25,969 nucleotides of DNA from a virus (IMGVR_UViG_2585427776_000011), one strand, 5' to 3'; positions 8,587 to 23,939 are shown, counted from the first letter of the stretch. Numbers and translations: made by a program. The notes: a model not told the origin generated them from the sequence alone.

Positions 8587-9081
8587 ATGGCCATGATGAT
8601 GATCTACGGCATGTTTGTTTTTGAGCTGCGCACATTGCCGCATCAGCAGTTACAGCAAAACAAAAGCTGGCGGCATGTGAAAAATGAACGCGTTAATCGT
8701 TCAGCAAGCTGGCAGTATATCGGCGCAGGTGATGATCGCATCGTGCTTTCCGGCGTGCTTTATCCTGAAATTACAGGTGGCGAAGTGTCGCTTTCGTTGC
8801 TGACCACGCAGGCATATACAGGACGCCCCTGGCCTCTGATTGATGGTGTCGGGCAGATTTACGGCATGTATGTACTGACTGAAACGAATACGACCCGTTC
8901 CGAGTTTGATCGCTACGGTAAGGCGAAAAAGATAGAATTTTCACTGACTCTTGGACGCTGTGATGAGGATTTGCGGGAGCGCCTGCAATCCTCATCGTTC
9001 AGTGATATGCTGTCCGGCTTCAAAGATAAGGTCACATCATCCCTTAACAGCGCGGCCAGCTCCGTTAAAGGGCTGTTTTGA
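8587..9081 (+). CDS. U: P2 gpU-like tail protein
   Basis: 164-aa ORF directly after T, gpU-like; start may be the second or third ATG (8593/8596) for better RBS spacing. Confidence 0.85.
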   Translation: MAMMMIYGMFVFELRTLPHQQLQQNKSWRHVKNERVNRSASWQYIGAGDDRIVLSGVLYPEITGGEVSLSLLTTQAYTGRPWPLIDGVGQIYGMYVLTETNTTRSEFDRYGKAKKIEFSLTLGRCDEDLRERLQSSSFSDMLSGFKDKVTSSLNSAASSVKGLF

Positions 9082-9088
9082 TTAACGC

Positions 9089-9120
9089 AAAACCGCTAAT
9101 GGTCAGATTAGCGGTTTTTA
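9089..9120. terminator. bidirectional intrinsic terminator between U and invertase
   Basis: Perfect inverted repeat AAAACCGCTAAT-ggtcag-ATTAGCGGTTTT with T/A runs on both sides; overlaps the 3' end of the invertase ORF. Confidence 0.6.
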
Positions 9121-9707
9121 TTTTCCTGAGTCTGCCTGGTTGTTTCTTCAGCCTGTATATCGCCTGCAGGGTGATAACGATAAATCGTCGATATGCCGAT
9201 GTCGTAAATGATCGCCAGTTGTTTCCTGTCATGACCGTTTTTAATCAGCCTCGCTATTTGCTCGTGTTGTTCTTTTGTCAACTTCGGGCGACGTCCGCCA
9301 ATGCGTCCTTGTGCGCGTGCTGCTGCCAGCCCGGCCAGTGTACGCTCTACAATTAATTCACGTTCCATTTCGGCTAAAGCCCCCATGACGTGAAAAAAGA
9401 AACGCCCCATGGGTGTTGATGTGTCAATGCTGTCCGTCAGACTACGGAAATTAACACCTTTTTCCCGCAATTCCTCAATAAGCGTGATCAGGTGTTTCAT
9501 ACTTCTGCCCAGTCTGTCCAGCTTCCAGACAACCAGCGTATCTCCTTCTGATAGCGTTCTGAGCAGTTTTTTCAATCCCGGTCTGGCTGATTTCGTTCCG
9601 CTGATTTTATCTTCAAAAATCAGTTCACATCCTGCGCAGTTCAGTGCATTGCGTTGTAAATCCGTGTTCTGGTCATTTGTTGACACACGAATATAGCCAA
9701 TTTGCAT
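9108..9707 (-). CDS. Gin/Pin/Hin-family serine DNA invertase
   Basis: Translation from MQIGYIRVSTNDQ... (resolvase catalytic serine motif) with C-terminal HTH ...LAIIYDIGISTIYRY; start at ATG 9707 with RBS AGAGGA, not the 264-aa ORF start. Confidence 0.9.
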   Translation of the reverse strand: MQIGYIRVSTNDQNTDLQRNALNCAGCELIFEDKISGTKSARPGLKKLLRTLSEGDTLVVWKLDRLGRSMKHLITLIEELREKGVNFRSLTDSIDTSTPMGRFFFHVMGALAEMERELIVERTLAGLAAARAQGRIGGRRPKLTKEQHEQIARLIKNGHDRKQLAIIYDIGISTIYRYHPAGDIQAEETTRQTQENKNR

Positions 9708-9721
9708 AAAAAACATCCTCT

Positions 9722-10207
9722 TTGTTTCGTGAAAAATACAGAGTTGGTATAGGTAGGGATAAAAACGAAAACGTTGGTTTGGGGGAAGGCTCTGCACTGC
9801 CCGTTGGTGTGCCCGTTCCGTGGTCCTCAGCAACACCACCAACGGGCTGGCTGAAATGTAACGGTGCAGCATTTTCTTCTGAAATGTATCCCAGACTGGC
9901 AAGGGCTTATCCCACCAATAAATTACCGGATTTACGCGGTGAATTTATCCGTGGCTGGGATGATGGGCGCGGGATTGATGCGGGACGTACCCTGCTTTCA
10001 GGGCAGGATGGTACAAGTTTTTCTCATTACGGAGGTAATTTCGACATTGGGTCTGGTCATTCAATCAATAACTATGACCAAATTGTTTCTAACCAACCAG
10101 GCTTTTCCCGTTTTTCATTTGCAGGGCCTTCACGAGGTGATGGGGTTAATTATGTAACCATTCGTCCTCGTAATATTGCGTTTAATTACATCGTAAGGGC
10201 AGCATGA
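9722..10207 (+). CDS. tail-fibre C-terminal cassette 1 (tail-collar-like domain), no canonical start
   Basis: ORF opens at TTG; contains GWLKCNGAAFSSEMYP...LPDLRGEFIRGWDDGRG, the pattern of phage tail-collar domains; ends NYIVRAA. Confidence 0.5.
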   Translation: MFREKYRVGIGRDKNENVGLGEGSALPVGVPVPWSSATPPTGWLKCNGAAFSSEMYPRLARAYPTNKLPDLRGEFIRGWDDGRGIDAGRTLLSGQDGTSFSHYGGNFDIGSGHSINNYDQIVSNQPGFSRFSFAGPSRGDGVNYVTIRPRNIAFNYIVRAA

Positions 10208-10217
10208 AAACGTTGGT

Positions 10218-10685
10218 TTGGGGGAAGGCTCTGCGTTGCCCGTTGGCGTGCCCGTTCCATGGCCCTCAGCCACGCTGCCAACGGGGTGGCTGAAATGTAA
10301 CGGCGCAGCATTTTCTTCTGAAATGTACCCCAATCTGGCAAAGGCCTACCCCACCAATAAATTACCGGATTTACGGGGCGAATTTATTCGCGGCTGGGAT
10401 GACGGACGGGGCGTTGATAATGGGCGCAACCTACTGTCTGCACAGTCTGACGCTATTCAGAATATAGTTGGCACTTTTGGGCGTACTCAGCTTTTTAAAG
10501 ATGCGCTTAATTCAGGACCATTTAGTCAAACTGACTCTATATTATCAGTAGGCTTACAACCAACTGAGATCATTGAAGGATATGGTGCTTCTGTATGGAC
10601 ATTCGACGCCTCTCGCTCAGTTCGCACAGCATCTGAAACACGCCCCCATAACATTGCGTTTAATTACATCGTAAGGGCAGCATGA
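10218..10685 (+). CDS. tail-fibre C-terminal cassette 2, no ATG start
   Basis: Same conserved 5' and 3' ends as cassette 1 with a different central segment; frame opens just after the previous stop. Confidence 0.5.
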   Translation: MGEGSALPVGVPVPWPSATLPTGWLKCNGAAFSSEMYPNLAKAYPTNKLPDLRGEFIRGWDDGRGVDNGRNLLSAQSDAIQNIVGTFGRTQLFKDALNSGPFSQTDSILSVGLQPTEIIEGYGASVWTFDASRSVRTASETRPHNIAFNYIVRAA

Positions 10686-10695
10686 AAACGTTGGT

Positions 10696-11202
10696 TTGGG
10701 GGAAGGCTCTGCACTGCCCGTTGGTGTACCCGTTCCGTGGCCCTTAGAAACACTGCCAACGGGATGGCTGAAATGTAACGGTGCAGCATTTTCTTCTGAA
10801 ATGTATCCCAGACTGGCAAAGGCTTATCCCACCAATAAATTACCGGATTTACGCGGTGAATTTATCCGTGGTTGGGATGACGGACGTGGTGTGGATGCGG
10901 GGAGAACAATATTATCCGCTCAAGGTGATGCCATACGTAATATCTATGGTGAGTTCAAGACTGTAAACACCGAAAATTATTCAATATGGGAATCAGTAGG
11001 CTCATTTAAGGGGGCAGTGGTGCCTTTGAGTCCCTCAACGAACAATAGTTATTTCTCCTTCACCAGAAGTATGGTGACAGAAAGAACAGACGGCACTGTT
11101 TACCCAAAAGTGATAGGCCTTGATGCTTCAAGAATTGTTCCAACTGCAAACGAAAACCGTCCTCGTAACATTGCGTTTAATTACATCGTAAGGGCAGTAT
11201 GA
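10696..11202 (+). CDS. tail-fibre C-terminal cassette 3, no ATG start
   Basis: Same architecture as cassettes 1 and 2 with a third variable centre. Confidence 0.5.
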   Translation: MGEGSALPVGVPVPWPLETLPTGWLKCNGAAFSSEMYPRLAKAYPTNKLPDLRGEFIRGWDDGRGVDAGRTILSAQGDAIRNIYGEFKTVNTENYSIWESVGSFKGAVVPLSPSTNNSYFSFTRSMVTERTDGTVYPKVIGLDASRIVPTANENRPRNIAFNYIVRAV

Positions 11203-11312
11203 AAACGTTGGTTTGGGGGAAGGCTCTGCGTTGCCCGTTGGTGTACCTGTTCCGTGGCCCTCAGCCACACCGCCAGCAGGGTGGCTGAAATGTAACGGTG
11301 CAGCATTTTCTT

Positions 11313-11531
11313 CTAAAATGTACCCAAAACTGGCAAAGGCCTAGCGGAAAACTCGCTACCGGGGAGTGGTGACAGGATGTGCTCAATATTCACACGTGCA
11401 CCATAAACGGACGGGTTATAACTGGTGGCGGCAGCTTTCAGCATGTCGCCGTTGATTTCGCGCCCGTCTGCCGTTACACCGGAGACAGCCACGCGAAACT
11501 TTTTGCGGGATGTCTTTTTTTCATTAGCCAT
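11313..11531 (-). pseudogene. truncated remnant of P2 gpO-like capsid scaffold gene (N-terminal ~60 codons only)
   Basis: MANEKKTSRKKFRVAVSGVTADGREINGDML...VYGARVNIEHI resembles the gpO N-terminus as I remember it; homology stops at about 11346 where the cassette array abuts; RBS AGAGGGG before ATG 11531; divergent from P as in P2. Confidence 0.6.
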
Positions 11532-11685
11532 AGTTTTTGCCCCTCTGACTGGTTCTTCAGTCATGATGGCAAAGCGTAACAGGCTGATACAAAGGGCTTT
11601 TGTTGTAAGAAAACGGCCAGAACAGGGGGTTAAGGAGAACAGTTTCGCGCGCGGGTAATCTTCCTGTAATTACTCAGGGGGAGCA

Positions 11686-13437
11686 ATGATTCAGGACGCT
11701 TTTGTGCGCCAGCGTGCGCGGCAACTTTACTGGCAGGGTTATCCGCCCGCAGAAATATCACGTCTGATGGGAATAAACCCGAACACGATTTATGCGTGGA
11801 AAAAACGCGACCAGTGGGATGAAACGCCACCCGTGCAGCGTGTCACGCAGTCCATCGATGCGCGCCTCATCCAGCTCACTGAAAAACAGAATAAAACAGG
11901 TGGTGACTTCAAGGAAATAGACCTGCTGACCCGGCAGCTTAAAAAACTGCATGATGGCCAGCCGGATGCGACGGCCACAGGAAAGAAAGGCCGGGCGAAA
12001 AAACTCAAAAATCATTTCACGCCGGAACAGATTGCCGCACTGCGGGAAAAAATCATCAGCAGGCTGGAGTGGCATCAGCGGGGCTGGTTTGACTCCCTGA
12101 CCCTTTGCAGGGAAGCCGGGATACGTAACAGGATGATCCTGAAATCCCGACAGATTGGGGCGACCTGGTATTTTGCACAGGAAGCACTGCTGATGGCGCT
12201 GCGTGACGATGTGGCGCAACCTTACCAGCGTAACCAGATTTTTTTGTCTGCGTCGCGTCGTCAGGCGTTCCAGTTTAAAAGCATTATTCAGAAGGCCGCG
12301 GCTGAAGTTGATGTGGAGCTGAAAGGGGGCGATAAAATCATCCTCTCAAACGGCGCAGAGCTGCATTTTCTCGGCACTTCTGCTGCGTCGGCACAGTCCT
12401 ATACGGGCAATTTTTATTTTGATGAATTTTTCTGGGTCAGTCGCTTTGCCGAACTGCGCAAGGTGGCTGGCGCTATGGCAACCCTCAGCGGACTGCGGCG
12501 CACCTACTTCTCCACGCCATCCACCGAAACGCACGAGGCATACGCCTACTGGAACGGCGACCGCTGGAACGAGAAAAAGGCCACGCATAAACGCCAGCGT
12601 TTTTCTGTGGACTGGAAAACGCTGCATAACGGGCTTATCTGCCCTGACCGGACGTGGCGGCAAATTGTCACGCTGGAAGATGTGGTTAAACACGGCTGGA
12701 AACACACCGATATCGACGAAATTCGTGATGAAAACACCGAAGACGAGTTCCTCAATCTCTATATGTGTGAGTTTGTCCGCGAAGGGGAATCGGCATTTAA
12801 CCTGAATATCCTGATTGGCTGCGGTGTTGACGGATACGACGACTGGAAAGACTGGAAACCTTTTGCTCCCCGCCCGATGGGGAATCGTCCGGTATGGATT
12901 GGGTATGACGCAAACGGCAGCAGTGGCAACGGGGACAGCGGCGCTGTGTCCGTGGTGGTTCCTCCGGCTGTTCCTGGTGGCCGTTTTCGAACGGTGGAGA
13001 CGCGACGCGTTCAGGGGCTGGAGTTTGAAGAACAGGCCAGAGTCATTGAAGAGTTCACGTGTCGCTACAACGTGGAACACATCGGCATTGATGTGACGGG
13101 CGGGAACGGGGAGGCTGTTTATCAGATAGTGAAGCGGTTTTTCCCTGCTGCTATTCCGTACACCTTCACGCTGTCATCCAAACGGTCGCTGGTACTGAAA
13201 ATGCTGCAAATAATGCGTGCCGGACGGTGGGAATACGATCGCGCCGAACGCGAGCTGGTCGCGGCCTTTAACGCCGTGCGTAAGGTGAAAACACCGGGTG
13301 GCTTTATCACTTACGAAACGGACCGCGCGAGGGGGATCAGCCACGGCGACCTTGCGTGGGCAACCATGCTTGCTGTCATTAACGAACCAATTGGCGGCGA
13401 AGGAGAAAACGAGCGTTTCACGGTTATGGAGTTCTGA
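11686..13437 (+). CDS. P: P2 gpP-like terminase large (ATPase) subunit
   Basis: 583-aa ORF recognised as P2-type terminase ATPase; stop overlaps Q start (ATGA). Confidence 0.93.
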   Translation: MIQDAFVRQRARQLYWQGYPPAEISRLMGINPNTIYAWKKRDQWDETPPVQRVTQSIDARLIQLTEKQNKTGGDFKEIDLLTRQLKKLHDGQPDATATGKKGRAKKLKNHFTPEQIAALREKIISRLEWHQRGWFDSLTLCREAGIRNRMILKSRQIGATWYFAQEALLMALRDDVAQPYQRNQIFLSASRRQAFQFKSIIQKAAAEVDVELKGGDKIILSNGAELHFLGTSAASAQSYTGNFYFDEFFWVSRFAELRKVAGAMATLSGLRRTYFSTPSTETHEAYAYWNGDRWNEKKATHKRQRFSVDWKTLHNGLICPDRTWRQIVTLEDVVKHGWKHTDIDEIRDENTEDEFLNLYMCEFVREGESAFNLNILIGCGVDGYDDWKDWKPFAPRPMGNRPVWIGYDANGSSGNGDSGAVSVVVPPAVPGGRFRTVETRRVQGLEFEEQARVIEEFTCRYNVEHIGIDVTGGNGEAVYQIVKRFFPAAIPYTFTLSSKRSLVLKMLQIMRAGRWEYDRAERELVAAFNAVRKVKTPGGFITYETDRARGISHGDLAWATMLAVINEPIGGEGENERFTVMEF

Positions 13438-14483
13438 TGAGCAGAAAAAATAAAAAAATGCGCATGAGTTCACGCATTGATCTCGCTGATGCGCTCAGGA
13501 AAGAATCATCGCTCAGTGCATTCACATTTGATGGTCCTTATCGCCTGACCGGGCATGACCTGCTGGACAATATGTACTGTGCTGATAACGGGCGATGGTA
13601 TGAAACCCCGGTGGACTGGTACGGTCTGGCAAGAGCCGCCCGGCAAACGTCCTGGCATCAGTCTGCGCTTTACTTTAAGCGCAATGTATTGCTCGGTTGC
13701 TACATCCCGCACCCGCTGCTTTCCCGGCAGGATTTCTCGGCGCTGGCGCTGGACTGGTTTGTGTTCGGTAACGCATTCCTTGAGCTTCGGAGCAATATGC
13801 TCGGCGAACCACTTAAATTACGGCACGCACTGGCGAAATACATGCGACGCGGAAGCGATCTTGAATCATGGTGGTATGTGCAGGATGGCAAGGACGCGTT
13901 TCAGTTTCGCCCTGGCAAAGTGTGCCACCTGATGAATCCGGACATTAACCAGGAAATTTACGGCATGCCGGAATATCTTGGCGCATTACTCTCGGCCAGC
14001 CTGTCTCATTCGGCGGACATGTTCAGAAAATTGTATTACGACAATGGATCCCACGCCGGGTGCATCATCTACATCGGTGCAGCGCAGGTAAACCGCGAAA
14101 GCATGGACTCCCTGAAAGAAACGTTACAGGGTGCGCGTGGTGGTGGTGCGTTTAAAAACGTGCTCATCCATGCGCCCAACGGGGGCAAAGAGGGGGTGCA
14201 AATTTTGCCGTTCCAGCAGATCACCGCAAAGGATGAGTTCATGAATGTTAAGGCGGCATCCCGTGATGATGTGCTGGCTGCGCACCGCGTTCCGCCGCAA
14301 CTGATGGGGGCGATGCCGGGCGAAAAAAGTGCGTTTGGTGATGTGGAGAAGGCCGCGCGGGTTTACGCAATTAACGAGCTGATGCCTGTCATGGAGGCCA
14401 TGAAGCACATCAATGACTGGCTTGGCGAAGAGGTGATCCGCTTTAACCCTTACGCACTGTTAGACACCCAGCCCACATCCTGA
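13437..14483 (+). CDS. Q: P2 gpQ-like portal protein
   Basis: 348-aa ORF following P, portal family by sequence and synteny. Confidence 0.93.
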   Translation: MSRKNKKMRMSSRIDLADALRKESSLSAFTFDGPYRLTGHDLLDNMYCADNGRWYETPVDWYGLARAARQTSWHQSALYFKRNVLLGCYIPHPLLSRQDFSALALDWFVFGNAFLELRSNMLGEPLKLRHALAKYMRRGSDLESWWYVQDGKDAFQFRPGKVCHLMNPDINQEIYGMPEYLGALLSASLSHSADMFRKLYYDNGSHAGCIIYIGAAQVNRESMDSLKETLQGARGGGAFKNVLIHAPNGGKEGVQILPFQQITAKDEFMNVKAASRDDVLAAHRVPPQLMGAMPGEKSAFGDVEKAARVYAINELMPVMEAMKHINDWLGEEVIRFNPYALLDTQPTS

Positions 14484-14900
14484 CGCGCTTCGCTTGTCTG
14501 CTGCTTCGCCGGGGCATAAAAAATTTATCCCCCGACTCTCCAGCTCCTGTATCAGTCAGATAATTTCACGACGCTTTCCTGCTGATTGCCATCATCGACA
14601 GTCAGACTCTTACGCAATCCCACCGCGTTGACTGCATGTTCTCGCCGTCTCAGTGCGATTTTGACGGCCTTACCTTTCACCCCATCAAATCAAAAGCCCT
14701 CACGTCTTTTTCACGCTCAGCGTGAGAAATACAGCCATTCTGTTGTATCTCTGCGACATCGTTCAGGGAATGCTATTTACCCCCTGAAACGCGGGCTGTT
14801 CCCCCGTCACCTGCGCGCAGAAAAAATGCGTTTTTTTGTGCACGCACGGATCCTTGACGGATCCAGCCACCATGCGGGCCGGAAGGGCAAAAAGTCGTTC
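14484..14900. other. putative cos/packaging region (assigned by synteny only)
   Basis: In P2-like genomes cos lies just beyond the end of Q; I could not find the P2 cohesive-end sequence by eye. Region contains the palindrome CACGCTcAGCGTG (about 14709-14721). Confidence 0.3.
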
Positions 14901-14907
14901 AAAAAAA

Positions 14908-14934
14908 TTGTGCAAATTTGTGCACTATTGTGCA
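14908..14934 (+). promoter_or_regulatory. three helically phased TTGTGCA direct repeats upstream of the accessory operon
   Basis: TTGTGCA at 14908, 14918 and 14928 (10-bp period), with a fourth copy near 14837 and a CGGATCC direct repeat at about 14847-14866. Confidence 0.5.
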
Positions 14935-15013
14935 TTTGTATAGTGAAAAAAATATAGCAGAAAGTATACTTAGCGCCTTGTGGGCTACGTTAACTTTGCA
15001 GGAACATTTGGAA

Positions 15014-16393
15014 ATGAAAAAAATCAATAAAGAAGATTCTAAAAGAACCTTTTTACGTGGATGGTTGCGATTTCTTCGTAGCGTTGAGAGAGCTAAGAAA
15101 AAAAAGCCTGCGCAAGAGAAAAATGGTAGTCTTCGTTTTTCCGATGAAACAACTCCTGTCCAAAACCAAGTCGCTACGTTCATTGAAAATATATCGATTA
15201 TAAAAGAGTATGACTCATCAATTCTTCGTCGTGACGCAGAGAAGATATTAATACCTAAATATTTTGACTTATATGACAATCCAGAGAAATCTCTGCTATT
15301 TATTAGTGCAGCCACAAAATTAATTGCAAGAGGTAAATGGAAATCATATATTTTTGATTACAAGAAAAACAAAAAACACTGTCTTGGTCTTGAGTGTCTA
15401 TTAGGTGTTGCTCTTACAGCAGCAAGGCAAAGTAATATAAATTTCAAAGATACGATGATTCAGATTAATGGTATCTACCCTAAAGATGAACAGTATCTTG
15501 AAATTATCAGGGATGTCGGGCTTGTAAAAGAGATTAGTAATGCTGCACCAGGTAAAGTTCTGGACTCTACTGAAGCATCGAAAAAAGCGAATCCGAAGAA
15601 ACGAATCTTCTCTGCTGATAGTATCGGAAAGGAGAATGCTTCTGCCTTTGCCCATGACAGAAAAAATGTCACTGCTGAAAAATTTACCGCATACATAAAC
15701 GAATGCTTAAATGATCATAATTTAAAACTTGTACATGAGGCAGAAAAGCATTTAACTTCCTGCATGGGGGAACTCCTTGATAATGCGGAGCGGCATTGTG
15801 GGTTAGAGCAACGCCCACGCTGGTATTTGAGAGGTTTTGTTAATAATAACGTACGAAACCCCATATGTGAGTTGGCTGTTTTCAATTTTGGGAAAACTAT
15901 CAGCGAAACTTTTGATAATTTACCTGAGGATCATTTTTCATTAAGTCAACAAGTTAATCCATACATAAATAAGCATATTAAGAAAAAGGGTATGTTTAAG
16001 GAAGGATTAACAACAGTAGCGGCCTTGCAAGGGCGGGTGAGTTGTAAAAACGAGAAAGAAACTGACAGTTCTGGCACCGGAACAATTGAATTATTGAAGT
16101 TATTTCAAGATATGCATGATAATCTTAAAAAAATGGGAAGAGATATTAAAGGTGGGATAAAAATGACTTTAATATCTGGTAGTACTCATATTAACTTTGA
16201 TGGATCATATAAATTAAAGCAAAGGTTGGTTAATGACGAGGAAAGTGACATTTTTACTTACCCTTTTAATGATGTAGGGCTTGAATCTGAACCGGATCGC
16301 AACTATCTTAAGCGTATGAAGGATGCTCGATTTCCTGGAGTTATGATCAATATTCGTTTTCCTCTACCAGAAAACGCCACCCAGCGAACTTGA
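15014..16393 (+). CDS. hypothetical protein with GHKL-type ATPase / anti-sigma-factor serine-kinase-like motif (accessory operon gene 1)
   Basis: ATG 15014 with AGGA RBS; 459 aa, AT-rich codon usage; motif GELLDNAERHCG resembles the N-box (E..NA..H.G) of SpoIIAB/RsbW-type kinases and SSGTGTIELL a G2-like box. Function is inferred, not verified. Confidence 0.75.
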   Translation: MKKINKEDSKRTFLRGWLRFLRSVERAKKKKPAQEKNGSLRFSDETTPVQNQVATFIENISIIKEYDSSILRRDAEKILIPKYFDLYDNPEKSLLFISAATKLIARGKWKSYIFDYKKNKKHCLGLECLLGVALTAARQSNINFKDTMIQINGIYPKDEQYLEIIRDVGLVKEISNAAPGKVLDSTEASKKANPKKRIFSADSIGKENASAFAHDRKNVTAEKFTAYINECLNDHNLKLVHEAEKHLTSCMGELLDNAERHCGLEQRPRWYLRGFVNNNVRNPICELAVFNFGKTISETFDNLPEDHFSLSQQVNPYINKHIKKKGMFKEGLTTVAALQGRVSCKNEKETDSSGTGTIELLKLFQDMHDNLKKMGRDIKGGIKMTLISGSTHINFDGSYKLKQRLVNDEESDIFTYPFNDVGLESEPDRNYLKRMKDARFPGVMINIRFPLPENATQRT

Positions 16394-16403
16394 GGACAGG
16401 TAC

Positions 16404-16748
16404 ATGAAAATGGCTGACATCACCATAGATTTCAATAAGTTAGTAAAAGATAGTAACAAGAAACTTTTTGCTGGACGTTCTAATGGGCGCCAGGCCTATG
16501 ATTACTTTAATATAGGGAAATTTTGCACAACCAGTAATGATAGATTATATCTATTGATCCCCAAGGGAATTGTTGTATCAAGCTCATACTTTCTAGGTAT
16601 GCTTGAAACGGTTTTGCCGAAATTTTCTTCGCCTAGCGAATTTTATAGTCGCACTGTACTTGATGGTCGTGAATATAAAGAAGGTATGCTTTCTGAATTA
16701 GATAGAGCTGTAAGGAGAGGCTTACATAAAAATGTTCCCTTCTTTTAA
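16404..16748 (+). CDS. hypothetical small protein, STAS-like / DUF4325-like (accessory operon gene 2)
   Basis: 114 aa, RBS GAGGA; segment IVVSSSYFLGMLE resembles the serine-containing core of STAS-like domains recalled from memory; sits next to the kinase-like gene. Confidence 0.7.
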   Translation: MKMADITIDFNKLVKDSNKKLFAGRSNGRQAYDYFNIGKFCTTSNDRLYLLIPKGIVVSSSYFLGMLETVLPKFSSPSEFYSRTVLDGREYKEGMLSELDRAVRRGLHKNVPFF

Positions 16749-17541
16749 AAATATTTTTCAAATCAAAATGACAGCGCTGTCTGTCATTTTTTTTATATTC
16801 CCCGCAGCTTGCTCTGTGACAGATTTTTCCAATAAAGAAAACATTGAATGTAATGAGTCACTTTATCCAAACACGCCTTTTTATATTCCCGATTCAGGAC
16901 TTAGTGGTATATCATCACCGTTTTTGTTATCCGGAAACCCGAATGATGGCTTGATGTTTTGTGAAAAGGCAAACGACACCTTTCATAAGTTATCTCTGGC
17001 AAGGGATAACAAAAAAGATTTATTTGCTAATTATTTCAAAGATGTTCCAAATTCCTATGATATATATAATATTGTAAAGGTTCCGGAAAATGGTCCAGAG
17101 TGGATTTCTATTGGCATCTCTTTATTTGCTTTAGTTTCATCCTTTGTTATTCCTTGTGTTCAACATAGAAAAGAACGTAAAGAAGCTATTAATGAAGGGT
17201 ATTGGGTAAGAGAAGTAATTATGCCTAAAATTAATGGGTTGGCATTCGATGTTGTGCAAAGTTTTAAAAACTCCATGGCATTATCAGAAGAGGAGTTTCT
17301 TAGTGTATTCAGTAATACTCTTTTACCAAAACTAGGAGAGTTACGGGATTCATTATATTTGTTTAATAGTTTTCCAGAATTAAATGCAGATATTGAAAAT
17401 CTAGAAAGTATTTGTGACTCCTTGGAGGAAGAAGTTTCCAATCATATAGACTCGCCTAATGAAATAAGAATTTCTGATATATCAATGTTTCATTCCAAAT
17501 TAATACAGAAATTAATTTTACTTCATAAGAAGATAGGTTGA
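16732..17541 (+). CDS. hypothetical membrane protein (accessory operon gene 3)
   Basis: 269 aa; N-terminal hydrophobic signal-like segment MTALSVIFFIFPAAC (lipobox-like Cys) and an internal hydrophobic helix WISIGISLFALVSSFVIPCV; overlaps the end of gene 2. Confidence 0.7.
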   Translation: MFPSFKNIFQIKMTALSVIFFIFPAACSVTDFSNKENIECNESLYPNTPFYIPDSGLSGISSPFLLSGNPNDGLMFCEKANDTFHKLSLARDNKKDLFANYFKDVPNSYDIYNIVKVPENGPEWISIGISLFALVSSFVIPCVQHRKERKEAINEGYWVREVIMPKINGLAFDVVQSFKNSMALSEEEFLSVFSNTLLPKLGELRDSLYLFNSFPELNADIENLESICDSLEEEVSNHIDSPNEIRISDISMFHSKLIQKLILLHKKIG

Positions 17542-17586
17542 TTTTCAAGGCCTCCTTATTCCTAGGGCGGCCTTAGCTCTATATTT

Positions 17587-20319
17587 CTATCGTGTTCGAT
17601 GCAATAAACTGATTTTTTTGCGAGCATGTTTAGTGGTTTCACTGATTCTCTGTGCGTGCTCTGCGTCGCGGATGGCGCGCAGCATGTCAGAAAGTACGGT
17701 AACGGGTGTTTTCATGGTGTTCTGGTCTTGCTGAAGTGTGGATGCCAGGCGTGCGGCGGCTTCAGGGTCTGATGCCTCTAGTTGTTCCAGATAGCTGGCG
17801 ACCGGGTTATGGCGGATCTCCGTGCTGCTTACGCCGTGATTACGACTCAGGCGTTGCCAGAGCTGCGTGATTCGGCTGTCCGGGCGGGTATCCTGTTTGC
17901 GTACAATTTCAAATCCCTGCGGTGCAATGATGCTGCCGCCAACGTACAGACTGCCGCCCCGTAACAGGTGCTGCATCTGCTGTTCACCGATATGCAGGCC
18001 GAGAGATTCAGCAGACTCCCGCCATTCTTTAGCGAGTAACTCGTGGTTATCAGGCAAAGGCTGTGGCTGTTTGCGGCTCTGTGTCCAGTTCTGCATTTCA
18101 TCACTGCTGTTTTTTGCCTGTTTGTCACGCAGCGAACGCATCAGTGCCCGGCGTTCGTGCCGTTTCAGTGAGCGCATCCATTCATTCACGTCAACGCCTT
18201 CAGGAAGCCGCGGCCACGGTGCTGGCCGTTCTTCCGGCTGTTCTGTCCCGTTGTTGTCCGTTTCCTGTACACGGGGACAGTTATTGCCACGAGTCCAAGG
18301 GGCGGCAGGGCCGCCCTGAAGGTCAAAACCATTTTCGCGGGCGCTGTCTTCCGTTTCCGGTTTACGTCTTACCAGTTTCCAGTTATCCGGATGCGTGCAC
18401 ACACGGGAGGATTCCCCGATGAGTGGTGACCAGATCCCGTAAATCTGTACGCTCTGTTCGCCGTAATCATTCAGCTCATCTGCGAGGTCGTAGGCGGTGC
18501 GAATCAGGTAGTCTTTGCGTGGAACAAGTACGCCGCCCTGTTTTTCAATGTAGGTGGCAAAACACCCGGCATCGGCGGCAGCGAGTACCGCATCCATTGC
18601 GTCATCTTTCAGTCGTTGCGGGCCTTCCGGGTTGCGTGCCATCTGGCTGGCAAGGCGGCGCAGTTCACGCCACACCTGACGGGAGGGGATGCCAAAGAAC
18701 TGGAACTGGCGGACCCGATGAAGGCGCGCCCAGCCGATGGCGCGCTCCACACTCTCGGCCATTGATTTTCCGGTTTCGTGGTCAACGCGTGGCTTGCCCG
18801 TTTTCGGGTCGATGCCATCCACGGCGCGGCTGTCCAGGTTCTTTCCGATGTAGGTCGCGATATAGCTGGTTGGTGTGCCTTTTGAGCCGTCGACATACTC
18901 CGCCTTAAAGCGCGGAGTAATATCATTGCCCAGCTCGTGGCGGTCTTCCTGAATGGCAATATCGCGGGTGATGGCCACGATGCTGTCGATTTCTTCCGGA
19001 TGAGCAAAGACCATCATATGCCAGTGCACGGTGCCGTCATGGTGAGGCTCCACCGTGCGGATGCCATACCAGCGAAGACCGTCGCGGTTCAGTTTTTTGC
19101 GGACCGCCGCAAAAAACGTGTTAACCAGGTAATCGCTGGAGTCGCGCATGGTGGCCCCGTTCCATTTGGGATTCGGATGACCGTTCTCTGTTGTGGCGTG
19201 GTATTTTGACGGGCAGGTGACAGTCAGAAACACCGCTTTGTCGCCACGGGCTTCGGCCAGAAGTTCCAGCCCCTTCATGGTGGCCATCATTTCTGCCTTA
19301 CGGTGAACCGGGTTACTTACTCCCGCGTAATACACTGTCTCGAGATCAATCGTGAACCCGTCTTCGTTTTCCAGCATGAAACTTTTCAGGAAATCGCGTG
19401 TTTTCTCGCGCTGTGCGCGAAACTCGCTTAACGCGTCCTGGCTCAGATAGGGCGATGTTTTTCTGGAAACCAGACAGGCGGCGCGGAGTTGTTCTTCCCG
19501 CCACTCGCAACGTAACAGCCACAGTTTGCGTTTCCACCATTCCGCACAGGTCAGGCGAAGGATTGCGCCCGGTAACAGTTCCGTATCCGGATCGCTCTTG
19601 TTCAGAGCTTCGTAATGTGGCGGCATGGTGTGCAGATGTAACGCCATGCGGGCCAGCATCTGATATGCCTTCAGCGTCACCTCCATGGTCAGCTCGCCAT
19701 CTCTGGCACCAAGGCCATCACAGAGTGTTTCGAATGTGCTGCTGAACATCGCCGCCGTCATGGTGGCCAGCGTCTGTATCTGTTGCTTGTTAAGCTGCGG
19801 CAGGTAAAGCAAATCGTCCAGGCGTTCGCGTCCGGCAAGGGCGCGATAACCCGGTGTCAGCCAGCGGCTGTCGGTGTGGTCCAGACGTTCGAATATTTTG
19901 CGCAGGCTTCCGCGCGCGTAGCGTTCTGCCTGCCAGCTCTTTTTGCCTTTCCGGCGATCGGCTTCCTGTTTTTTGCGCAGGAAGGAGAGGTGGCGAATAA
20001 GCGGATCGCGCAGATAGGACGGCAGCAGGCGCAGCGAGGCCATGGCTTCATCCACCGCGCCGCGTGCCTGTTTTCTGGCGTCTCCTGCCAGTGCGATGGT
20101 TTTGTCCTGTTTTTCCTGTGCGTCCAGGCTTTTATTAATCAGGTTGCCCAGCGGCGTGGCGGAGAACGCCGCATCAGCCATTTCCTGGCGGCGCTCGTTC
20201 TCTACCCGGTAGGCATCCAGCCAGGAGGAGAGCGTGGATTCAGGAGCGGGGATCCCCGTTCCTTCACGCCCCACTGCGTGGCGCGGTTGTTGCCAGTCCC
20301 TGATGTACTCTGCCGTCAT
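17587..20319 (-). CDS. A: P2 gpA-like rolling-circle replication initiator (HUH endonuclease)
   Basis: 910-aa ORF with HUH motif HHDGTVHWHMMVF and tyrosine motif SYIATYIGK typical of P2 A / phiX174 A-type initiators. Confidence 0.93.
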   Translation of the reverse strand: MTAEYIRDWQQPRHAVGREGTGIPAPESTLSSWLDAYRVENERRQEMADAAFSATPLGNLINKSLDAQEKQDKTIALAGDARKQARGAVDEAMASLRLLPSYLRDPLIRHLSFLRKKQEADRRKGKKSWQAERYARGSLRKIFERLDHTDSRWLTPGYRALAGRERLDDLLYLPQLNKQQIQTLATMTAAMFSSTFETLCDGLGARDGELTMEVTLKAYQMLARMALHLHTMPPHYEALNKSDPDTELLPGAILRLTCAEWWKRKLWLLRCEWREEQLRAACLVSRKTSPYLSQDALSEFRAQREKTRDFLKSFMLENEDGFTIDLETVYYAGVSNPVHRKAEMMATMKGLELLAEARGDKAVFLTVTCPSKYHATTENGHPNPKWNGATMRDSSDYLVNTFFAAVRKKLNRDGLRWYGIRTVEPHHDGTVHWHMMVFAHPEEIDSIVAITRDIAIQEDRHELGNDITPRFKAEYVDGSKGTPTSYIATYIGKNLDSRAVDGIDPKTGKPRVDHETGKSMAESVERAIGWARLHRVRQFQFFGIPSRQVWRELRRLASQMARNPEGPQRLKDDAMDAVLAAADAGCFATYIEKQGGVLVPRKDYLIRTAYDLADELNDYGEQSVQIYGIWSPLIGESSRVCTHPDNWKLVRRKPETEDSARENGFDLQGGPAAPWTRGNNCPRVQETDNNGTEQPEERPAPWPRLPEGVDVNEWMRSLKRHERRALMRSLRDKQAKNSSDEMQNWTQSRKQPQPLPDNHELLAKEWRESAESLGLHIGEQQMQHLLRGGSLYVGGSIIAPQGFEIVRKQDTRPDSRITQLWQRLSRNHGVSSTEIRHNPVASYLEQLEASDPEAAARLASTLQQDQNTMKTPVTVLSDMLRAIRDAEHAQRISETTKHARKKISLLHRTR

Positions 20320-20325
20320 AGTGAT

Positions 20326-20691
20326 TTACTTCGTCATACCATTCAGGGTGTCGCGGTAGACTGTAGCCAGCCGCTGAATTTCCAGCACGGTGTCTTCTGT
20401 GTCGGCATGGCGATGTGTGATGCGGATGCTGTCGGCAATCACATCGACGATTGCAGAGGATGGGCGCTGGTAAATGCCAATAACGGACGGGGTGCCACCT
20501 TCAATGCGGTAAAGCCTGTAATTTCCCTCGTGGCTGTCAATCATGTAGCGACCATCAATAACAATCTTTCCGTCAGCGAGCTGCGGTACAGGCAGGGATT
20601 TCTGGTACATGTCATAACGATCACGCACGCGAGCGGCAAGATCACGTTCTGTGTTGAGCAGGTATTCAAGAAAGTCGTTGGCGAGAATCAT
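20326..20691 (-). CDS. hypothetical phage protein immediately upstream of A
   Basis: 121-aa ORF with RBS AGAGG; stop 4 nt before the A start. Confidence 0.65.
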   Translation of the reverse strand: MILANDFLEYLLNTERDLAARVRDRYDMYQKSLPVPQLADGKIVIDGRYMIDSHEGNYRLYRIEGGTPSVIGIYQRPSSAIVDVIADSIRITHRHADTEDTVLEIQRLATVYRDTLNGMTK

Positions 20692-20763
20692 TGCGGCAAT
20701 CCTCTTGTTACAGATGTGCGAAGGCCTCCCGCCGCAAGGTGCAGGAAAGGCCCGGAACAGGAA

Positions 20764-20994
20764 TTAATGGAGTTTGTTTTGCTGCTGGATGAGCTGTTGA
20801 AGCTCGTGCAGATCATCCGCCAGATAGCTGAAAACAGAGGCGGAATAAATGTTTGATAGTGCGTGGCTGCGCTCATGCAGCATATTGATGTGCATGATTT
20901 GCGCGACGCGTGATGCGCGGGAAAGTCTGCGGTTGATTTCAGTCTGGATGTGACGACGCTCCGCGATAGCGCGGTGTGGTTTGCGGTTTGCCAT
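20764..20994 (-). CDS. hypothetical phage protein
   Basis: 76-aa ORF with RBS AAGGGG 7 nt before ATG 20994. Confidence 0.6.
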   Translation of the reverse strand: MANRKPHRAIAERRHIQTEINRRLSRASRVAQIMHINMLHERSHALSNIYSASVFSYLADDLHELQQLIQQQNKLH

Positions 20995-21171
20995 GGTGTG
21001 GCCCCTTGTGTAGTAAGTTGTGAAAACTCACCATCCAGAGCTGCGAAACTGTGGGTGGCGAGACGTACGAGGTTCGCAGTACCGGCTACACAAGAACCCG
21101 GCCCGACCGAAGTCGGCCCCGTACGCCCCGCCATAATTCTGACGCGAAAAAAACGTGGCAATACAGTACGC

Positions 21172-21196
21172 ACAAAAAAACCGCTGGCGCGGTTGT
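21172..21196 (-). terminator. intrinsic terminator on minus strand inside the early operon
   Basis: On the minus strand AACCGC-gcca-GCGGTT is followed by TTTTTTTGTG. Confidence 0.5.
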
Positions 21197-21316
21197 GCGC
21201 TTGTGTAGTCAGCAGGCTGCGAAACCCGACACCCGTTTTGTGAGGTGCAGCGGAAATGTAACCTGACTGATTGCGGCATGGCAAGCGGTTTTTTTGTGTG
21301 TGCATGTTCTGGTTTC

Positions 21317-21879: not shown

Positions 21880-22079
21880 CTGCGTGGCTCCTGTACCTGT
21901 CGGATAAGATTCACCCGCGCCACGTTGGTGGCGCAGAAGTAAGTGCCGTCAGTGAGGTAGATGTGGTGTGCATCCTTTTCCGAACGGTGTTTGTCGATTG
22001 TGGTAATCAGGCGTTCGTCGACTTCGTATTCACGCCCTCTGGAGGTAAAACGAACGACAGGAAAATGCTTAATTGCCAT
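21876..22079 (-). CDS. hypothetical phage protein
   Basis: 67-aa ORF with RBS AAGGAGG upstream of ATG 22079. Confidence 0.55.
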   Translation of the reverse strand: MAIKHFPVVRFTSRGREYEVDERLITTIDKHRSEKDAHHIYLTDGTYFCATNVARVNLIRQVQEPRR

Positions 22080-22165
22080 TACGCCTCCTTGGCGTGTGCG
22101 AATACCTCCGCTAATGCGGATTGTTTTTACATTTTCTTATTTAATCTGTGGTTTTATTTGCTCTG

Positions 22166-22279
22166 TTATTCGCCAGTGAAAAAGCGTTCAATCTTTTTTA
22201 TTGAATGAATAATTCGCATAATCCCAATAGCGCAGGCCACCGAAATAATCAGAACAAGCCATGAGATAAATATACTCAT
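22166..22279 (-). CDS. 37-aa hydrophobic single-helix peptide (not in ORF track)
   Basis: Hand translation of minus strand gives MSIFISWLVLIISVACAIGIMRIIHSIKKIERFFTGE; its ATG overlaps the stop of the upstream gene (ATGA); RBS-like GGGGAA upstream. Confidence 0.35.
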   Translation of the reverse strand: MSIFISWLVLIISVACAIGIMRIIHSIKKIERFFTGE

Positions 22280-22518
22280 GCGATATTCCCCAGCTTATAC
22301 GGTTCAATATGTTCCCCGCATTCTGCGGCACAGATTAGCTCGGAAAGTTCGTTAAGTGCATCCAGATCATCAGCGTAAAAAGCCACGTCATACAGACTTC
22401 GGATTGCTCTGGTCAATGAGTCACGGGCCGCACGTTCAGCATGAGCGCCTGATGCACTTAAGCGAAAATAAAAACGCTCAAGTGCTTTGTTAATGAGAGT
22501 TTTATATTCTTTGCCCAT
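22276..22518 (-). CDS. hypothetical phage protein
   Basis: 80-aa ORF from ATG 22518 (ORF track starts one codon earlier at GTG); RBS AAGGA. Confidence 0.55.
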   Translation of the reverse strand: MGKEYKTLINKALERFYFRLSASGAHAERAARDSLTRAIRSLYDVAFYADDLDALNELSELICAAECGEHIEPYKLGNIA

Positions 22519-22529
22519 CACAACGTCCT

Positions 22530-22817
22530 TTAATCTGCTTTCTGTATTTCAGCTTCTGAATCCATACAAATAATTTCGATATAGGGTTCATCGCCATTAG
22601 CCTGGCGTGCCTTTTCAGCTTCGCTAATGATTTCTCGTACGGTCTGGTACGGAAGTTCCACAAGCAGTCGCGTGCCGTTCAGATAAACGTAAGTGGCTTC
22701 GTCGGCTCCGTTTTTACCCGCCGGAGTCACTCCGTCAATAGCGGATGCACGTAATAACAGTTCACCGCGAAAATCAATAAAACGGATAAATACACCTTGT
22801 GCATGCTCTTTGGTCAT
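22530..22817 (-). CDS. hypothetical phage protein
   Basis: Start chosen at internal ATG 22817 (MTKEHAQGVF...) with RBS AGGTG; 95 aa. Confidence 0.55.
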   Translation of the reverse strand: MTKEHAQGVFIRFIDFRGELLLRASAIDGVTPAGKNGADEATYVYLNGTRLLVELPYQTVREIISEAEKARQANGDEPYIEIICMDSEAEIQKAD

Positions 22818-22827
22818 AACGCACCTG

Positions 22828-23178
22828 TTATAAATCAGCCTGTTTAATAAAACTTTGCCCGCGAAGCAGACGATCAACCGTGCGAAGTGCTTCGTATAAT
22901 GTGAAATCCTGCCCGAACTGATTGTCGCCGCAGCTCAATGCAAAAATGCGGTTTCCGGTAAACGGATTGCGTGGGCATTTGTGGACCACAATTCCAGCTT
23001 TCTCAATCAGCCAGGTATGCTCGCCGATTTGTTTTATTGGGTAGCCATCCGGCGTTGCGTGTGTTTCGCTCAGGCTGTAGCGAGAGTTGCTACGTGATGC
23101 ACTGATAGCGAAACGGTTAGCATGGCGTTCCGCACCGTTGCGGAAGCGCTGCTGTGAATAATTGCGCTGTAGTTTCAT
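22828..23178 (-). CDS. hypothetical phage protein
   Basis: 116-aa ORF; first gene of a leftward block downstream of the 23179-23314 intergenic region. Confidence 0.5.
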   Translation of the reverse strand: MKLQRNYSQQRFRNGAERHANRFAISASRSNSRYSLSETHATPDGYPIKQIGEHTWLIEKAGIVVHKCPRNPFTGNRIFALSCGDNQFGQDFTLYEALRTVDRLLRGQSFIKQADL

Positions 23179-23314
23179 ATTAAAACTCTGTACCTTCGGT
23201 AAGGTGTACTCGTGTCACCTTGTATTGATTTGTGGTATTTTTTTGTGTGTCTAGGACTTGGACTGGCCGGTTCAGGTCCTGGCTTATGTTTAATTAAATT
23301 GTTAAGGGGTTTTC

Positions 23315-23506
23315 ATGTCAGAAGATAAAAAAGTTGTTAATTTGTTGAGTGAACTTAGTGCTGCTCTGGATAACATTAACCCTCCCAGGGTAAAAACGAC
23401 GGGTGATAAAGACGCATTAAACGCAGAGATTCATATATTACTGGCGTTAGTAACTGACAAAATTCAGCGTAAATACCCACCTGTCACACAACTGGTTGAT
23501 TTTTAA
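23315..23506 (+). CDS. hypothetical small protein (AT-rich accessory gene)
   Basis: 63-aa ORF with RBS AAGGGG; the only plus-strand gene in the early region; convergent with the next gene. Confidence 0.5.
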   Translation: MSEDKKVVNLLSELSAALDNINPPRVKTTGDKDALNAEIHILLALVTDKIQRKYPPVTQLVDF

Positions 23507-23512
23507 TTTGAT

Positions 23513-23935
23513 TTATGCCGGGCTGCTCCCGGCATCTTCTAGCTGCCATAATGTCTCGTCACCTGATAGAGCAAAACGAAATGAGTGAAGTATATCCTCC
23601 CGAGAGAAGCTCACGGCTACAGCTGCGGGAAAGTCAAATATAATCCCACCTTCATTTTTAAAACGATTACGCAATTGATAGGCTATCGGTTTGATTTGTG
23701 CAGGAAGAGTATCTATATCTCTTCCATTGACAACAGAATCTTTGTTTTCAAGTACTGATTTAGCGATTAGATATAGATGCCAGTAACTGGTTACAATTGT
23801 TACTCCTGTGATGTGTCGTAAATTAATTGCAATTCGTCCGTTATTATGTTTTTCCGCAAGGTATTTCAGGTTATCAATTAATGGTTGGTCATTTTTTGAA
23901 ATAGTTATTGTGAAATCTGGCGTGTTTGTTTTCAT
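23513..23935 (-). CDS. hypothetical protein (AT-rich accessory gene)
   Basis: Start at internal ATG 23935 (MKTNTPDF...) with GAGG RBS, 140 aa; the longer 221-aa ORF would overlap the upstream gene; visibly AT-rich. Confidence 0.55.
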   Translation of the reverse strand: MKTNTPDFTITISKNDQPLIDNLKYLAEKHNNGRIAINLRHITGVTIVTSYWHLYLIAKSVLENKDSVVNGRDIDTLPAQIKPIAYQLRNRFKNEGGIIFDFPAAVAVSFSREDILHSFRFALSGDETLWQLEDAGSSPA

Positions 23936-23939
23936 ACGA

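Follow-up and report, generated by a model that had tools for sequence, protein, structure and literature searches.

The stretch analysed here, referred to as the window, is the whole 25,969-nucleotide (nt) sequence IMGVR_UViG_2585427776_000011 from a virus, which begins with serS and continues as a P2-like prophage; it corresponds to the IMG/VR contig UViG_2585427782_000010. In this prophage, three open reading frames (ORFs) on the plus strand, designated g1, g2 and g3, form a block located between portal gene Q, with its neighbouring cos site, and the replication endonuclease gene A. By analogy with related systems, this block is best modelled as a kinase-STAS-effector conflict module carried as cargo of the cos-proximal defence hotspot of the P2-like prophage. 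The ORFs and the genes which flank them are as follows.

13437-14483, plus strand: portal gene Q, the left flank of the block
15014-16393, plus strand: g1, 459 residues from its ATG, a STAS + GHKL (SpoIIAB/RsbW-like) kinase-like protein
16404-16748, plus strand: g2, 114 residues, a divergent DUF4325/STAS-like protein
16732-17541, plus strand: g3, 269 residues, a membrane protein and the proposed effector
17587-20319, minus strand: replication endonuclease gene A, the right flank of the block

A sequence-only reading of this DNA had described a three-gene plus-strand operon with closely spaced or overlapping genes, AT-rich by comparison with the phage core and located between Q/cos and gene A in the P2 hotspot, and each element of that description was borne out. 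The ORFs lie where that reading had placed them, with a 10-nt gap between g1 and g2 and an overlap of 17 nt between g2 and g3, while the GC content over 14936-17586 is 35.1% and that of the flanking genes is 53.6% (portal Q) and 57.2% (A). The ATG assigned to g1 is the one chosen by PGAP in an Escherichia coli genome which is 99.8% identical across the region. Only the left flank of the block, 14500-14934, is common to other P2-like phages. Of 5,426 complete E. coli genomes, 21 contained the entire block, which is annotated in them as three hypothetical proteins. Direct family scans of all three proteins against Pfam, NCBIfam, PADLOC and PHROGs gave nothing interpretable, the sole real library match being that of g1 to phrog_3364, a family of unassigned function (E 2.4e-7).

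The g1 protein family comprised 59 clusters, and its alignment (A1) held 32 sequences with identity down to 28%. An AlphaFold2 model built from the alignment of 32 homologues had a predicted local distance difference test score (pLDDT) of 83 and a predicted template modelling score (pTM) of 0.83. On the basis of this model g1 is predicted to be a basic N-terminal helix, a STAS-like domain and a SpoIIAB-like GHKL domain in one chain. The N-terminal region of about 250 residues, which the sequence-only reading had considered to be of unknown nature, is therefore replaced in the model by the basic helix and the STAS-like domain.

15014..15148, plus strand: basic N-terminal helix of g1, residues 1-45; net charge +9 over residues 1-50; helix 6-29 in the AlphaFold2 model
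15221..15628, plus strand: STAS-like domain of g1, about residues 70-205, with approximate boundaries
15656..16378, plus strand: GHKL/Bergerat domain of g1, about residues 215-455
15767..15802, plus strand: N box GELLDNAERHCG of g1, residues 252-263; E253, N257 and H261 invariant in the 32 sequences of A1
15878..15898, plus strand: G1-box position of g1, VFNFGKT, with Asn291 in place of the canonical Asp and Thr in place of the second Gly
16064..16093, plus strand: G2-box-like DSSGTGTIEL of g1, residues 351-360; G354 and G356 invariant and T357 nearly so in A1

The model shows the Bergerat alpha/beta sandwich which characterizes the GHKL superfamily, and the best structural match of g1 was the anti-sigma factor SpoIIAB. 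The protein carries a net charge of +16, and its basic N-terminus is retained in distant members. The SpoIIAB/RsbW-like N box and the G2 box pointed out in the sequence-only reading are both present with their key residues invariant. The N box contains the Mg-binding Asn (E-x3-N), and the G2 box provides the glycine-rich hinge of the ATP lid. For comparison we used VapK and CapK, the kinases of the VapKSC and CapK/CapS systems, which combine STAS and GHKL kinase domains, are activated by single-stranded DNA and phosphorylate a conserved Ser of a STAS protein (Chambers, Rani, Min, Villa, Corbett, EMBO J 2026; PMC13373217). The N-box pattern E-x3-N-x3-H of g1 is the same as that of VapK (EIYANSFEH) and CapK (ELIGNVRDH), and the G2 box of both kinases reads RGLG.

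The GHKL assignment held for these two boxes but not for the G1 box, nor for a Pfam HATPase_c match. No Pfam HATPase match to g1 was found at E<=1, the gathering threshold of HATPase_c (PF02518) was not reached, and a g1 profile search gave no match among Protein Data Bank (PDB) sequences. The G1 box of the g1 family reads N291-x-G293-x-T/S rather than D-x-G-x-G, and the Asp which contacts adenine in the GHKL superfamily is absent from it; VapK, CapK and a homologue from the P4 hotspot, unlike g1, all have DxGxG. The register of this box was set by strand position and by spacing relative to the motifs of SpoIIAB, VapK and CapK. From its sequence motifs, kinase activity of g1 is plausible rather than assured.

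With respect to g2, the protein family comprised 41 clusters encoded beside g1 homologues, and the AlphaFold2 model had a pLDDT of 89.6. Neither g2 nor its 29 close relatives gave a Pfam match at E<=10, the DUF4325 (PF14213) gathering threshold of 23 bits was not reached, and fold searches with g2 itself gave no direct STAS link. As the direct Pfam searches were empty, the link between g2 and STAS proteins is an indirect one. It was obtained by a profile search over 1.84 billion representatives, which gave 126 hits and from which an extended alignment (A4) of g2 and 125 profile hits (126 sequences) was assembled. DUF4325, described as a 'STAS-like domain of unknown function', was matched by 13 of these 125 hits and no other family was recurrent. 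Two hits, P0195 (27.4 bits) and P0198 (26.7 bits), exceeded the Pfam cut-off of 23. In a divergent cassette at locus L015, P0198 is encoded by the gene in the middle; the upstream gene there matched the g1 hidden Markov model (HMM) at 1e-97 and the downstream gene matched the g3 HMM at 8e-14. Being flanked by g1 and g3 homologues, P0198 therefore corresponds to g2 in a remote copy of this system. The proposal that g2 is STAS-like was in this way supported through its profile hits and through P0198, but not by a direct Pfam match.

Further comparisons pointed in the same direction. When the g2 profile was compared with PDB sequences, the best match was the STAS protein TM1081; this match was weak (E 0.31), and its alignment placed the Ser triplet of g2 on a DSFS motif. 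Alignment of full-length g2 by hhalign to a DUF4325 set headed by VapS gave a probability of 97% and E 2e-10 with intermediates included, and the reversed-template control gave E 0.2. VapS itself scored 62.7 bits to DUF4325. The label DUF4325 had also been given independently to g2 by HHpred in Rousset et al. 2022 (PMC9122126).

Conservation within g2 was concentrated in LFAGRxNG, in the triplet S59-S60-S61 and in a C-terminal helix with the pattern E98-x2-R-A-x2-R-G-L. The serine-core motif quoted in the sequence-only reading, IVVSSSYFLGMLE, is present in g2.

16578..16586, plus strand: Ser59-Ser60-Ser61 of g2, at the N-terminus of helix 60-67; candidate phospho-acceptor; all invariant in alignment A2
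16692..16745, plus strand: conserved C-terminal helix and tail SELDRAVRRGLHKNVPFF of g2; helix 97-107 in the model

Across the 126 sequences of A4, S61 was retained in at least 90%. Manual alignment on the LG motif paired S61 with S58 of Bacillus subtilis SpoIIAA. Alignment by hhalign paired S60 with Ser48 of VapS, which is an experimental phosphosite (PMC13373217). VapS is a 116-residue antitoxin which holds the PIN toxin VapC by means of its STAS domain and C-terminal helix, and phosphorylation of Ser48 by VapK frees VapC, as does the substitution S48E (PMC13373217). In the C-terminus of g2, residues E98, R101, A102 and R105 were invariant and G106, L107, N110 and F114 nearly so (A2). By analogy, this helix may correspond to the C-terminal helix of VapS, which inhibits the toxin.

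A number of remote g2-like proteins were found in other settings. In P0144 and P0163 the DUF4325-like domain is fused to hydrophobic transmembrane (TM) segments, which are C-terminal in P0144 and N-terminal in P0163; such fusions are a Rosetta-stone hint that the g2-type STAS subfamily works at membranes. P0144 adjoins RtcB on a 2.4-kb contig and P0105 is located among ankyrin-repeat genes with no kinase, and both contexts were uninformative. A fairly close relative of g2 (75 bits with the g2 HMM) is encoded at L014:3162-5612 among ankyrin-repeat proteins, with neither a GHKL kinase nor a g3 homologue, and the small STAS-like protein is therefore used in another context as well.

The g3 family comprised 24 clusters and had no Pfam domain. 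From its sequence, g3 is predicted to be an envelope protein in which a signal peptide precedes a variable stretch in the periplasm, a single TM helix and a conserved domain in the cytoplasm. This topology was deduced by combining the positive-inside rule with the signal peptide and the TM helix.

16732..16812, plus strand: signal peptide of g3 with lipobox-like FPAAC (Cys27), from a hydropathy scan
16813..17100, plus strand: periplasmic segment of g3, residues 28-123; mean column conservation 0.37
17101..17160, plus strand: TM helix WISIGISLFALVSSFVIPCV of g3, residues 124-143; Kyte-Doolittle values up to 2.26 in a 19-residue window
17161..17538, plus strand: cytoplasmic domain of g3, residues 144-269; acidic, net charge -7; conservation 0.54-0.73
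17188..17226, plus strand: juxtamembrane motif I-x4-W-x-R-E-V-I-x-P of g3, residues 153-165, the best conserved part of the protein

A signal peptide had also been given by Phobius for the g3-type protein in Rousset et al. (PMC9122126). The signal peptide and TM helix proposed in the sequence-only reading were thus both recovered, while the lipobox proved to be non-canonical, FPAAC having Pro at -3 where the canonical form is [LVI][ASTVI][GAS]C. The lipobox Cys was retained in most enterobacterial homologues (PTAC, LTAC, IIGC, LTGC), including most of the close ones, and was missing in several distant ones; LTAC, IIGC and LTGC are canonical boxes. The periplasmic segment varies in length, and its conservation of 0.37 compares with 0.62-0.73 for the TM and juxtamembrane parts. 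The TM helix is directly followed by QHRKERK, in keeping with the positive-inside rule. Among five distant homologues, W124 and the motif residues I153, W158, R160 and P165 were invariant, and conservation of the motif was at least 0.85 over 31 sequences.

Within the first 60 nt of g3 there is a perfect 10-bp hairpin followed by a run of eight U (16765-16790), positioned over an internal ATG at 16768 (free energy -9.9 kcal/mol, z -2.45). This hairpin could limit expression of g3 relative to g2. A role as a conserved antitoxin/toxin attenuator was considered and dropped, similar hairpins being found at only three of six loci; L007 and L008 have one at the start of g3, and L002, L004 and L006 do not.

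The order g1-g2-g3 was preserved in all 30 cassettes examined. These came from two distinct types of P2-like prophage (in Klebsiella and other members of the Enterobacteriaceae), one island in Vibrio and two in metagenomes, a P2-like prophage in which the cassette is close to the integrase, an Aeromonas prophage, a Pantoea plasmid, the loci L015 and L016, and 20 IMG/VR contigs; the cassette was also found in Citrobacter, Morganella and others. Swapping of the effector within the g1 family was looked for, and a g3 homologue was present in 30 of 30 cassettes. In most enterobacterial members g2 and g3 overlap by the same 17 nt, an arrangement which suggests translational coupling as in toxin-antitoxin pairs. 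The Q/A hotspot of P2 hosts the cassette in E. coli, Klebsiella and other Enterobacteriaceae. Outside P2 hotspots its neighbours were type I, II and III restriction-modification, AAA_15, HicB, Mrr_N, Phd/ParE and PIN/VapC50 genes, together with Fic, HipA, NERD and McrA-like HNH genes and integrases, which is the company of a defence island. Neither a cognate sigma factor nor a PP2C phosphatase was found around the cassette in the window or at the other loci examined.

The divergent copy of the full system, at L015:620-3112 and L016:1368-3860, encodes proteins of 434, 107 and 294 residues; in L015 it adjoins a phage integrase, and in L016 it adjoins a Phage_GPA gene. At the G1 position of its kinase-like protein the residue is Ser, and the periplasmic segment of its g3 homologue is long and repetitive, with repeats of (I/V)xVxxP-like units.

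The cassette has been catalogued previously. Rousset et al. 2022 (PMC9122126, Table S5B) listed it as P2-hotspot system #19, 'HATPase_c | DUF4325', at 155 of about 18,150 E. coli P2-hotspot loci, and noted a signal peptide and one TM segment in protein 3. Proteins 1 and 2 of system #19 have the same sequences as g1 and g2, and protein 3 differs from g3 by a few residues. The entry is a catalogue line with HHpred labels, for which we found no phenotype or mechanism (PMC9122126), and our literature search found no paper which tested the cassette or described the membrane-protein variant. No model in PADLOC v2.0.0 matches the cassette, and PADLOC would therefore miss it. Two other candidates were rejected: Rst_3HP, a validated P2-hotspot system of the form 'hp + hp + hp' (E1114 proteins), whose published sequences are unrelated in length and content, and the GHKL domain of Vibrio cholerae VcSduA, which belongs to an unrelated Shedu variant. 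The sequence-only reading had not recognized a named system here. The cassette was catalogued in 2022 and its relative VapKSC was solved in 2026, so that it is less novel than that reading implied. The cassette is a candidate already listed in 2022 and is of the kinase-STAS-effector type, its G1 box being atypical and its proposed effector a membrane protein.

Taken together, the block is very probably a functional three-part GHKL/STAS/membrane module. With less assurance, we consider it likely to be an anti-phage or abortive-infection module, as the sequence-only reading had suggested; its position in the hotspot and its defence-island neighbours elsewhere fit such a role. How the parts would work together is more tentative. 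By analogy with VapKSC, the wiring may be of the same type with a different killer, and we put this forward as a possibility which falls short of being likely. In an uninfected lysogen, g2 would bind the cytoplasmic domain of g3 and hold g3 inactive. An infection cue, possibly a nucleic acid which the basic N-terminus or the STAS/GHKL groove would sense, would then activate g1, which would phosphorylate g2 on Ser60 or Ser61. Phosphorylated g2 would release g3, and freed g3 would damage the inner membrane or the envelope and so abort the infection. As no phosphatase is encoded, such a switch would be one-way. From the analogy we infer the kinase activity, the phosphosite, g2-g3 binding, toxicity of g3, the trigger and the anti-phage phenotype.

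Several observations weigh against this VapKSC-type wiring. In place of the G1 Asp, all 32 aligned members of the g1 family have Asn (N291 and G293 being invariant in A1), and the divergent member at L015 has Ser. The corresponding Asp of GyrB and Hsp90 touches adenine, and its change to Asn abolishes ATP binding. With the Asp missing, g1 may therefore bind nucleotide differently or may not be a kinase. The similarity of g1 to VapK, CapK and the P4-hotspot homologue was not significant (hhalign E 0.014-0.06); with A1, the values were E 0.04 for VapK and E 0.056 for the VapK/CapK/P4 set, which is a weak test as the templates were single sequences or very shallow, and hhalign against single VapK or VapS sequences gave E 0.04-0.1. 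The aromatic residue which serves CapK and VapK for single-stranded DNA could not be mapped onto g1. HMMs of g2 gave at most 4 bits against VapS and CapS, and the hhalign match of g2 to the set headed by VapS dropped to E 0.6 when the three templates found by way of the g2 profile were left out and independent templates remained. As the match was lost without these intermediates, the link of g2 to DUF4325 and VapS is transitive only; the argument from the L015 counterpart rescues it, and the sequence data are consistent with the link to DUF4325. No recognizable effector domain was found in g3 with Pfam, NCBIfam, PADLOC or PHROGs, and g3 has a single TM helix. Both the toxicity of g3 and its binding by g2 are drawn from analogy. 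Finally, the sequences of the cassette are not in the tables of tested systems of Rousset et al. (PMC9122126).

Other explanations were weighed against the same evidence. The cassette could serve a purpose other than defence, as a prophage 'moron', a stress-response or addiction module (for example a tripartite toxin-antitoxin system) or an envelope regulator of the lysogen. P2 hotspots also hold partition systems and the CDT toxin, the lack of a matching PADLOC model would be in keeping with such a role, and Chambers et al. consider the border between stress response and immunity to be blurred (PMC13373217). We nevertheless regard it as unlikely, given that the cassette recurs in unrelated mobile contexts beside restriction-modification and toxin-antitoxin genes and that the same hotspot houses old, tin and other validated systems. 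In addition, VapKSC protects against phage Bas42, and this protection is abolished by each of VapC D28A, VapS S48A and VapK F54A (PMC13373217).

The structural results for g1 also bear on a classical SpoIIAB-type partner switch. Here g1 would act mainly as a binder which sequesters the cytoplasmic domain of g3, unphosphorylated g2 would compete for g1 and free g3, and phosphorylation or mere nucleotide binding would reset the switch. The anti-sigma factor SpoIIAB was the top structural match of g1, loss of the G1 Asp would suit selection for binding over catalysis, and the basic g1 (+16) could pair with the acidic cytoplasmic domain of g3 (-7). However, no PP2C phosphatase or other regenerator of unphosphorylated g2 was found in or beside any cassette, the conserved overlap is that of g2 with g3 and not of g1 with g3, and the invariant Glu and Asn of the N box together with the G2 glycines favour retained nucleotide chemistry. 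Furthermore, in VapKSC, the only anti-phage relative which has been studied, it is the STAS protein that inhibits the effector (PMC13373217). This switch is accordingly considered improbable.

A similarly low probability was assigned to g3 acting as the sensor rather than the killer, with its periplasmic segment or TM helix detecting phage adsorption, DNA injection or membrane stress and signalling to g1 and g2, and with the output elsewhere, for example in phosphorylation of a host or phage protein or in action of g2 on another target. The periplasmic segment is exposed, the juxtamembrane motif is the best conserved part of g3 as in signalling receptors, no toxin domain is recognizable in g3, and the CapK/CapS relatives are regulators and not killers (PMC13373217). 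On the other hand, the periplasmic segment is the least conserved part of the protein (0.37) and varies in length, which would not be expected of a sensor that binds a ligand; g2, in contrast to CapS, is without a DNA-binding domain; and at the loci examined no other gene was consistently linked to the cassette as an output. Very improbable is a reading from sequence in which g3 would be a new kind of regulated envelope effector. If Cys27 is lipidated and the Ser at +2 directs its lipid to the outer membrane, with the TM helix remaining in the inner one, g3 would bridge both membranes in the manner of a unimolecular spanin, with a cytoplasmic control domain (which spanins themselves lack) under a phospho-STAS switch, such that infection would set off envelope fusion or rupture. 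The G1 Asp-to-Asn change would on this reading be the sign of a GHKL kinase that uses nucleotide in an altered way.

Sequences which might control the block were sought by consensus scan.

14943..14970, plus strand: promoter-like site GTGAAA-16-TATACT, 44 nt 5' of the g1 ATG; 9/12 consensus matches; low confidence
17548..17581, plus strand: terminator-like hairpin between the convergent g3 and gene A, from consensus scan and sequence; weak

The number of promoter-like sites in the region was not above that in shuffled sequences. The site at 14943..14970 is located at the start of the cargo, just past the end of the flank shared with P2-like phages. At the extreme end of that flank, 5' of the promoter-like site and of g1, TTGTGCA occurs three times at an exact 10-bp phase (14908, 14918 and 14928), with a fourth copy at 14836 and eight copies in the whole 26-kb window. 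Among the fetched loci this array was found only in the near-identical E. coli prophage L001, and it may serve as an operator or as a protein-binding array near cos.

With respect to the remainder of the window, the prophage seems rearranged or defective. serS (1-1293) is followed by gpD (minus strand) and then by sheath, tube and tape-measure genes. A Hin/Cin-type resolvase-invertase gene (9108-9902, minus strand) is followed by three tandem cassettes with tail-collar domains (9722-11202), which directly precede the large terminase and portal genes with no capsid module between them. The junction at 9000-12200 was contiguous in 0 of 5,426 complete E. coli genomes. Downstream of gene A, an Ash-family protein is encoded at 20688-21305 (minus strand), scoring 25.0 bits against a Pfam cut-off of 26. 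A second stretch of lower GC content (39-46%) at 22000-24200, with ORFs which had no Pfam match such as 23513-24178 and 22530-22877 (both minus strand), may represent additional accessory cargo of the early region.

If the VapKSC-type model of the block is true, the pair of a GHKL kinase and a DUF4325/STAS protein would be a portable trigger that can be connected to quite different killers, namely the PIN nuclease of VapKSC and the membrane protein of this cassette, which would extend the modularity theme of the 2026 VapKSC work. The membrane effector would be small and tractable, and its activation could be traced through phosphorylation of the 114-residue g2. The cassette is also a natural test of a GHKL kinase without the G1 aspartate. 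The changed G1 box and the envelope effector are the parts likeliest to give something new.

In comparison with known systems, the cassette differs from SpoIIAB-SpoIIAA and RsbW-RsbV in having neither a sigma factor nor a PP2C phosphatase, in the fusion of STAS and kinase within g1, in the change of the G1 Asp to Asn, and in its membrane-protein output. With CapK/CapS it shares a STAS + GHKL kinase encoded immediately 5' of a STAS protein, which in CapS is a substrate phosphorylated on a conserved Ser. CapS, however, has a winged helix-turn-helix and represses transcription whereas g2 has no DNA-binding domain, CapK has an N-terminal helix-turn-helix where g1 has a basic helix, and the CapKS pair precedes a whole immune operon and not one membrane protein. 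The P4-hotspot system #69, also labelled 'HATPase_c | DUF4325' (PMC9122126, Table S1B; nine occurrences), consists of two genes and has no membrane protein. Protein 1 of this system is collinear with g1, a basic N-terminus being followed by STAS (Pfam STAS E 0.003) and GHKL domains, and protein 2 matches DUF4325 at 53 bits; protein 1 differs from g1 in its canonical G1 box (YDLGVG), and its similarity to g1 was not significant (E 0.014).

The comparison with VapKSC is the most extensive. As its proposed effector the cassette has, in place of a PIN nuclease, an envelope protein which carries a signal peptide and a TM helix, no PIN or other match to g3 having been found in Pfam, NCBIfam or PADLOC. 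In addition, g1 is about 160 residues longer than VapK and has a basic N-terminal extension, and VapK has the G1 Asp (DFGVG) which g1 lacks. In other respects the two are alike. Both have the three-gene order of kinase, STAS protein and effector, with a kinase in which a STAS domain is followed by a SpoIIAB-like GHKL domain in one chain. In both, the middle protein is of the DUF4325 type and about 115 residues long; a conserved Ser stands at the beginning of its helix 2, and it has a C-terminal helix, which is functional in VapS. Neither encodes a phosphatase, and both are found on mobile elements and near defence genes.

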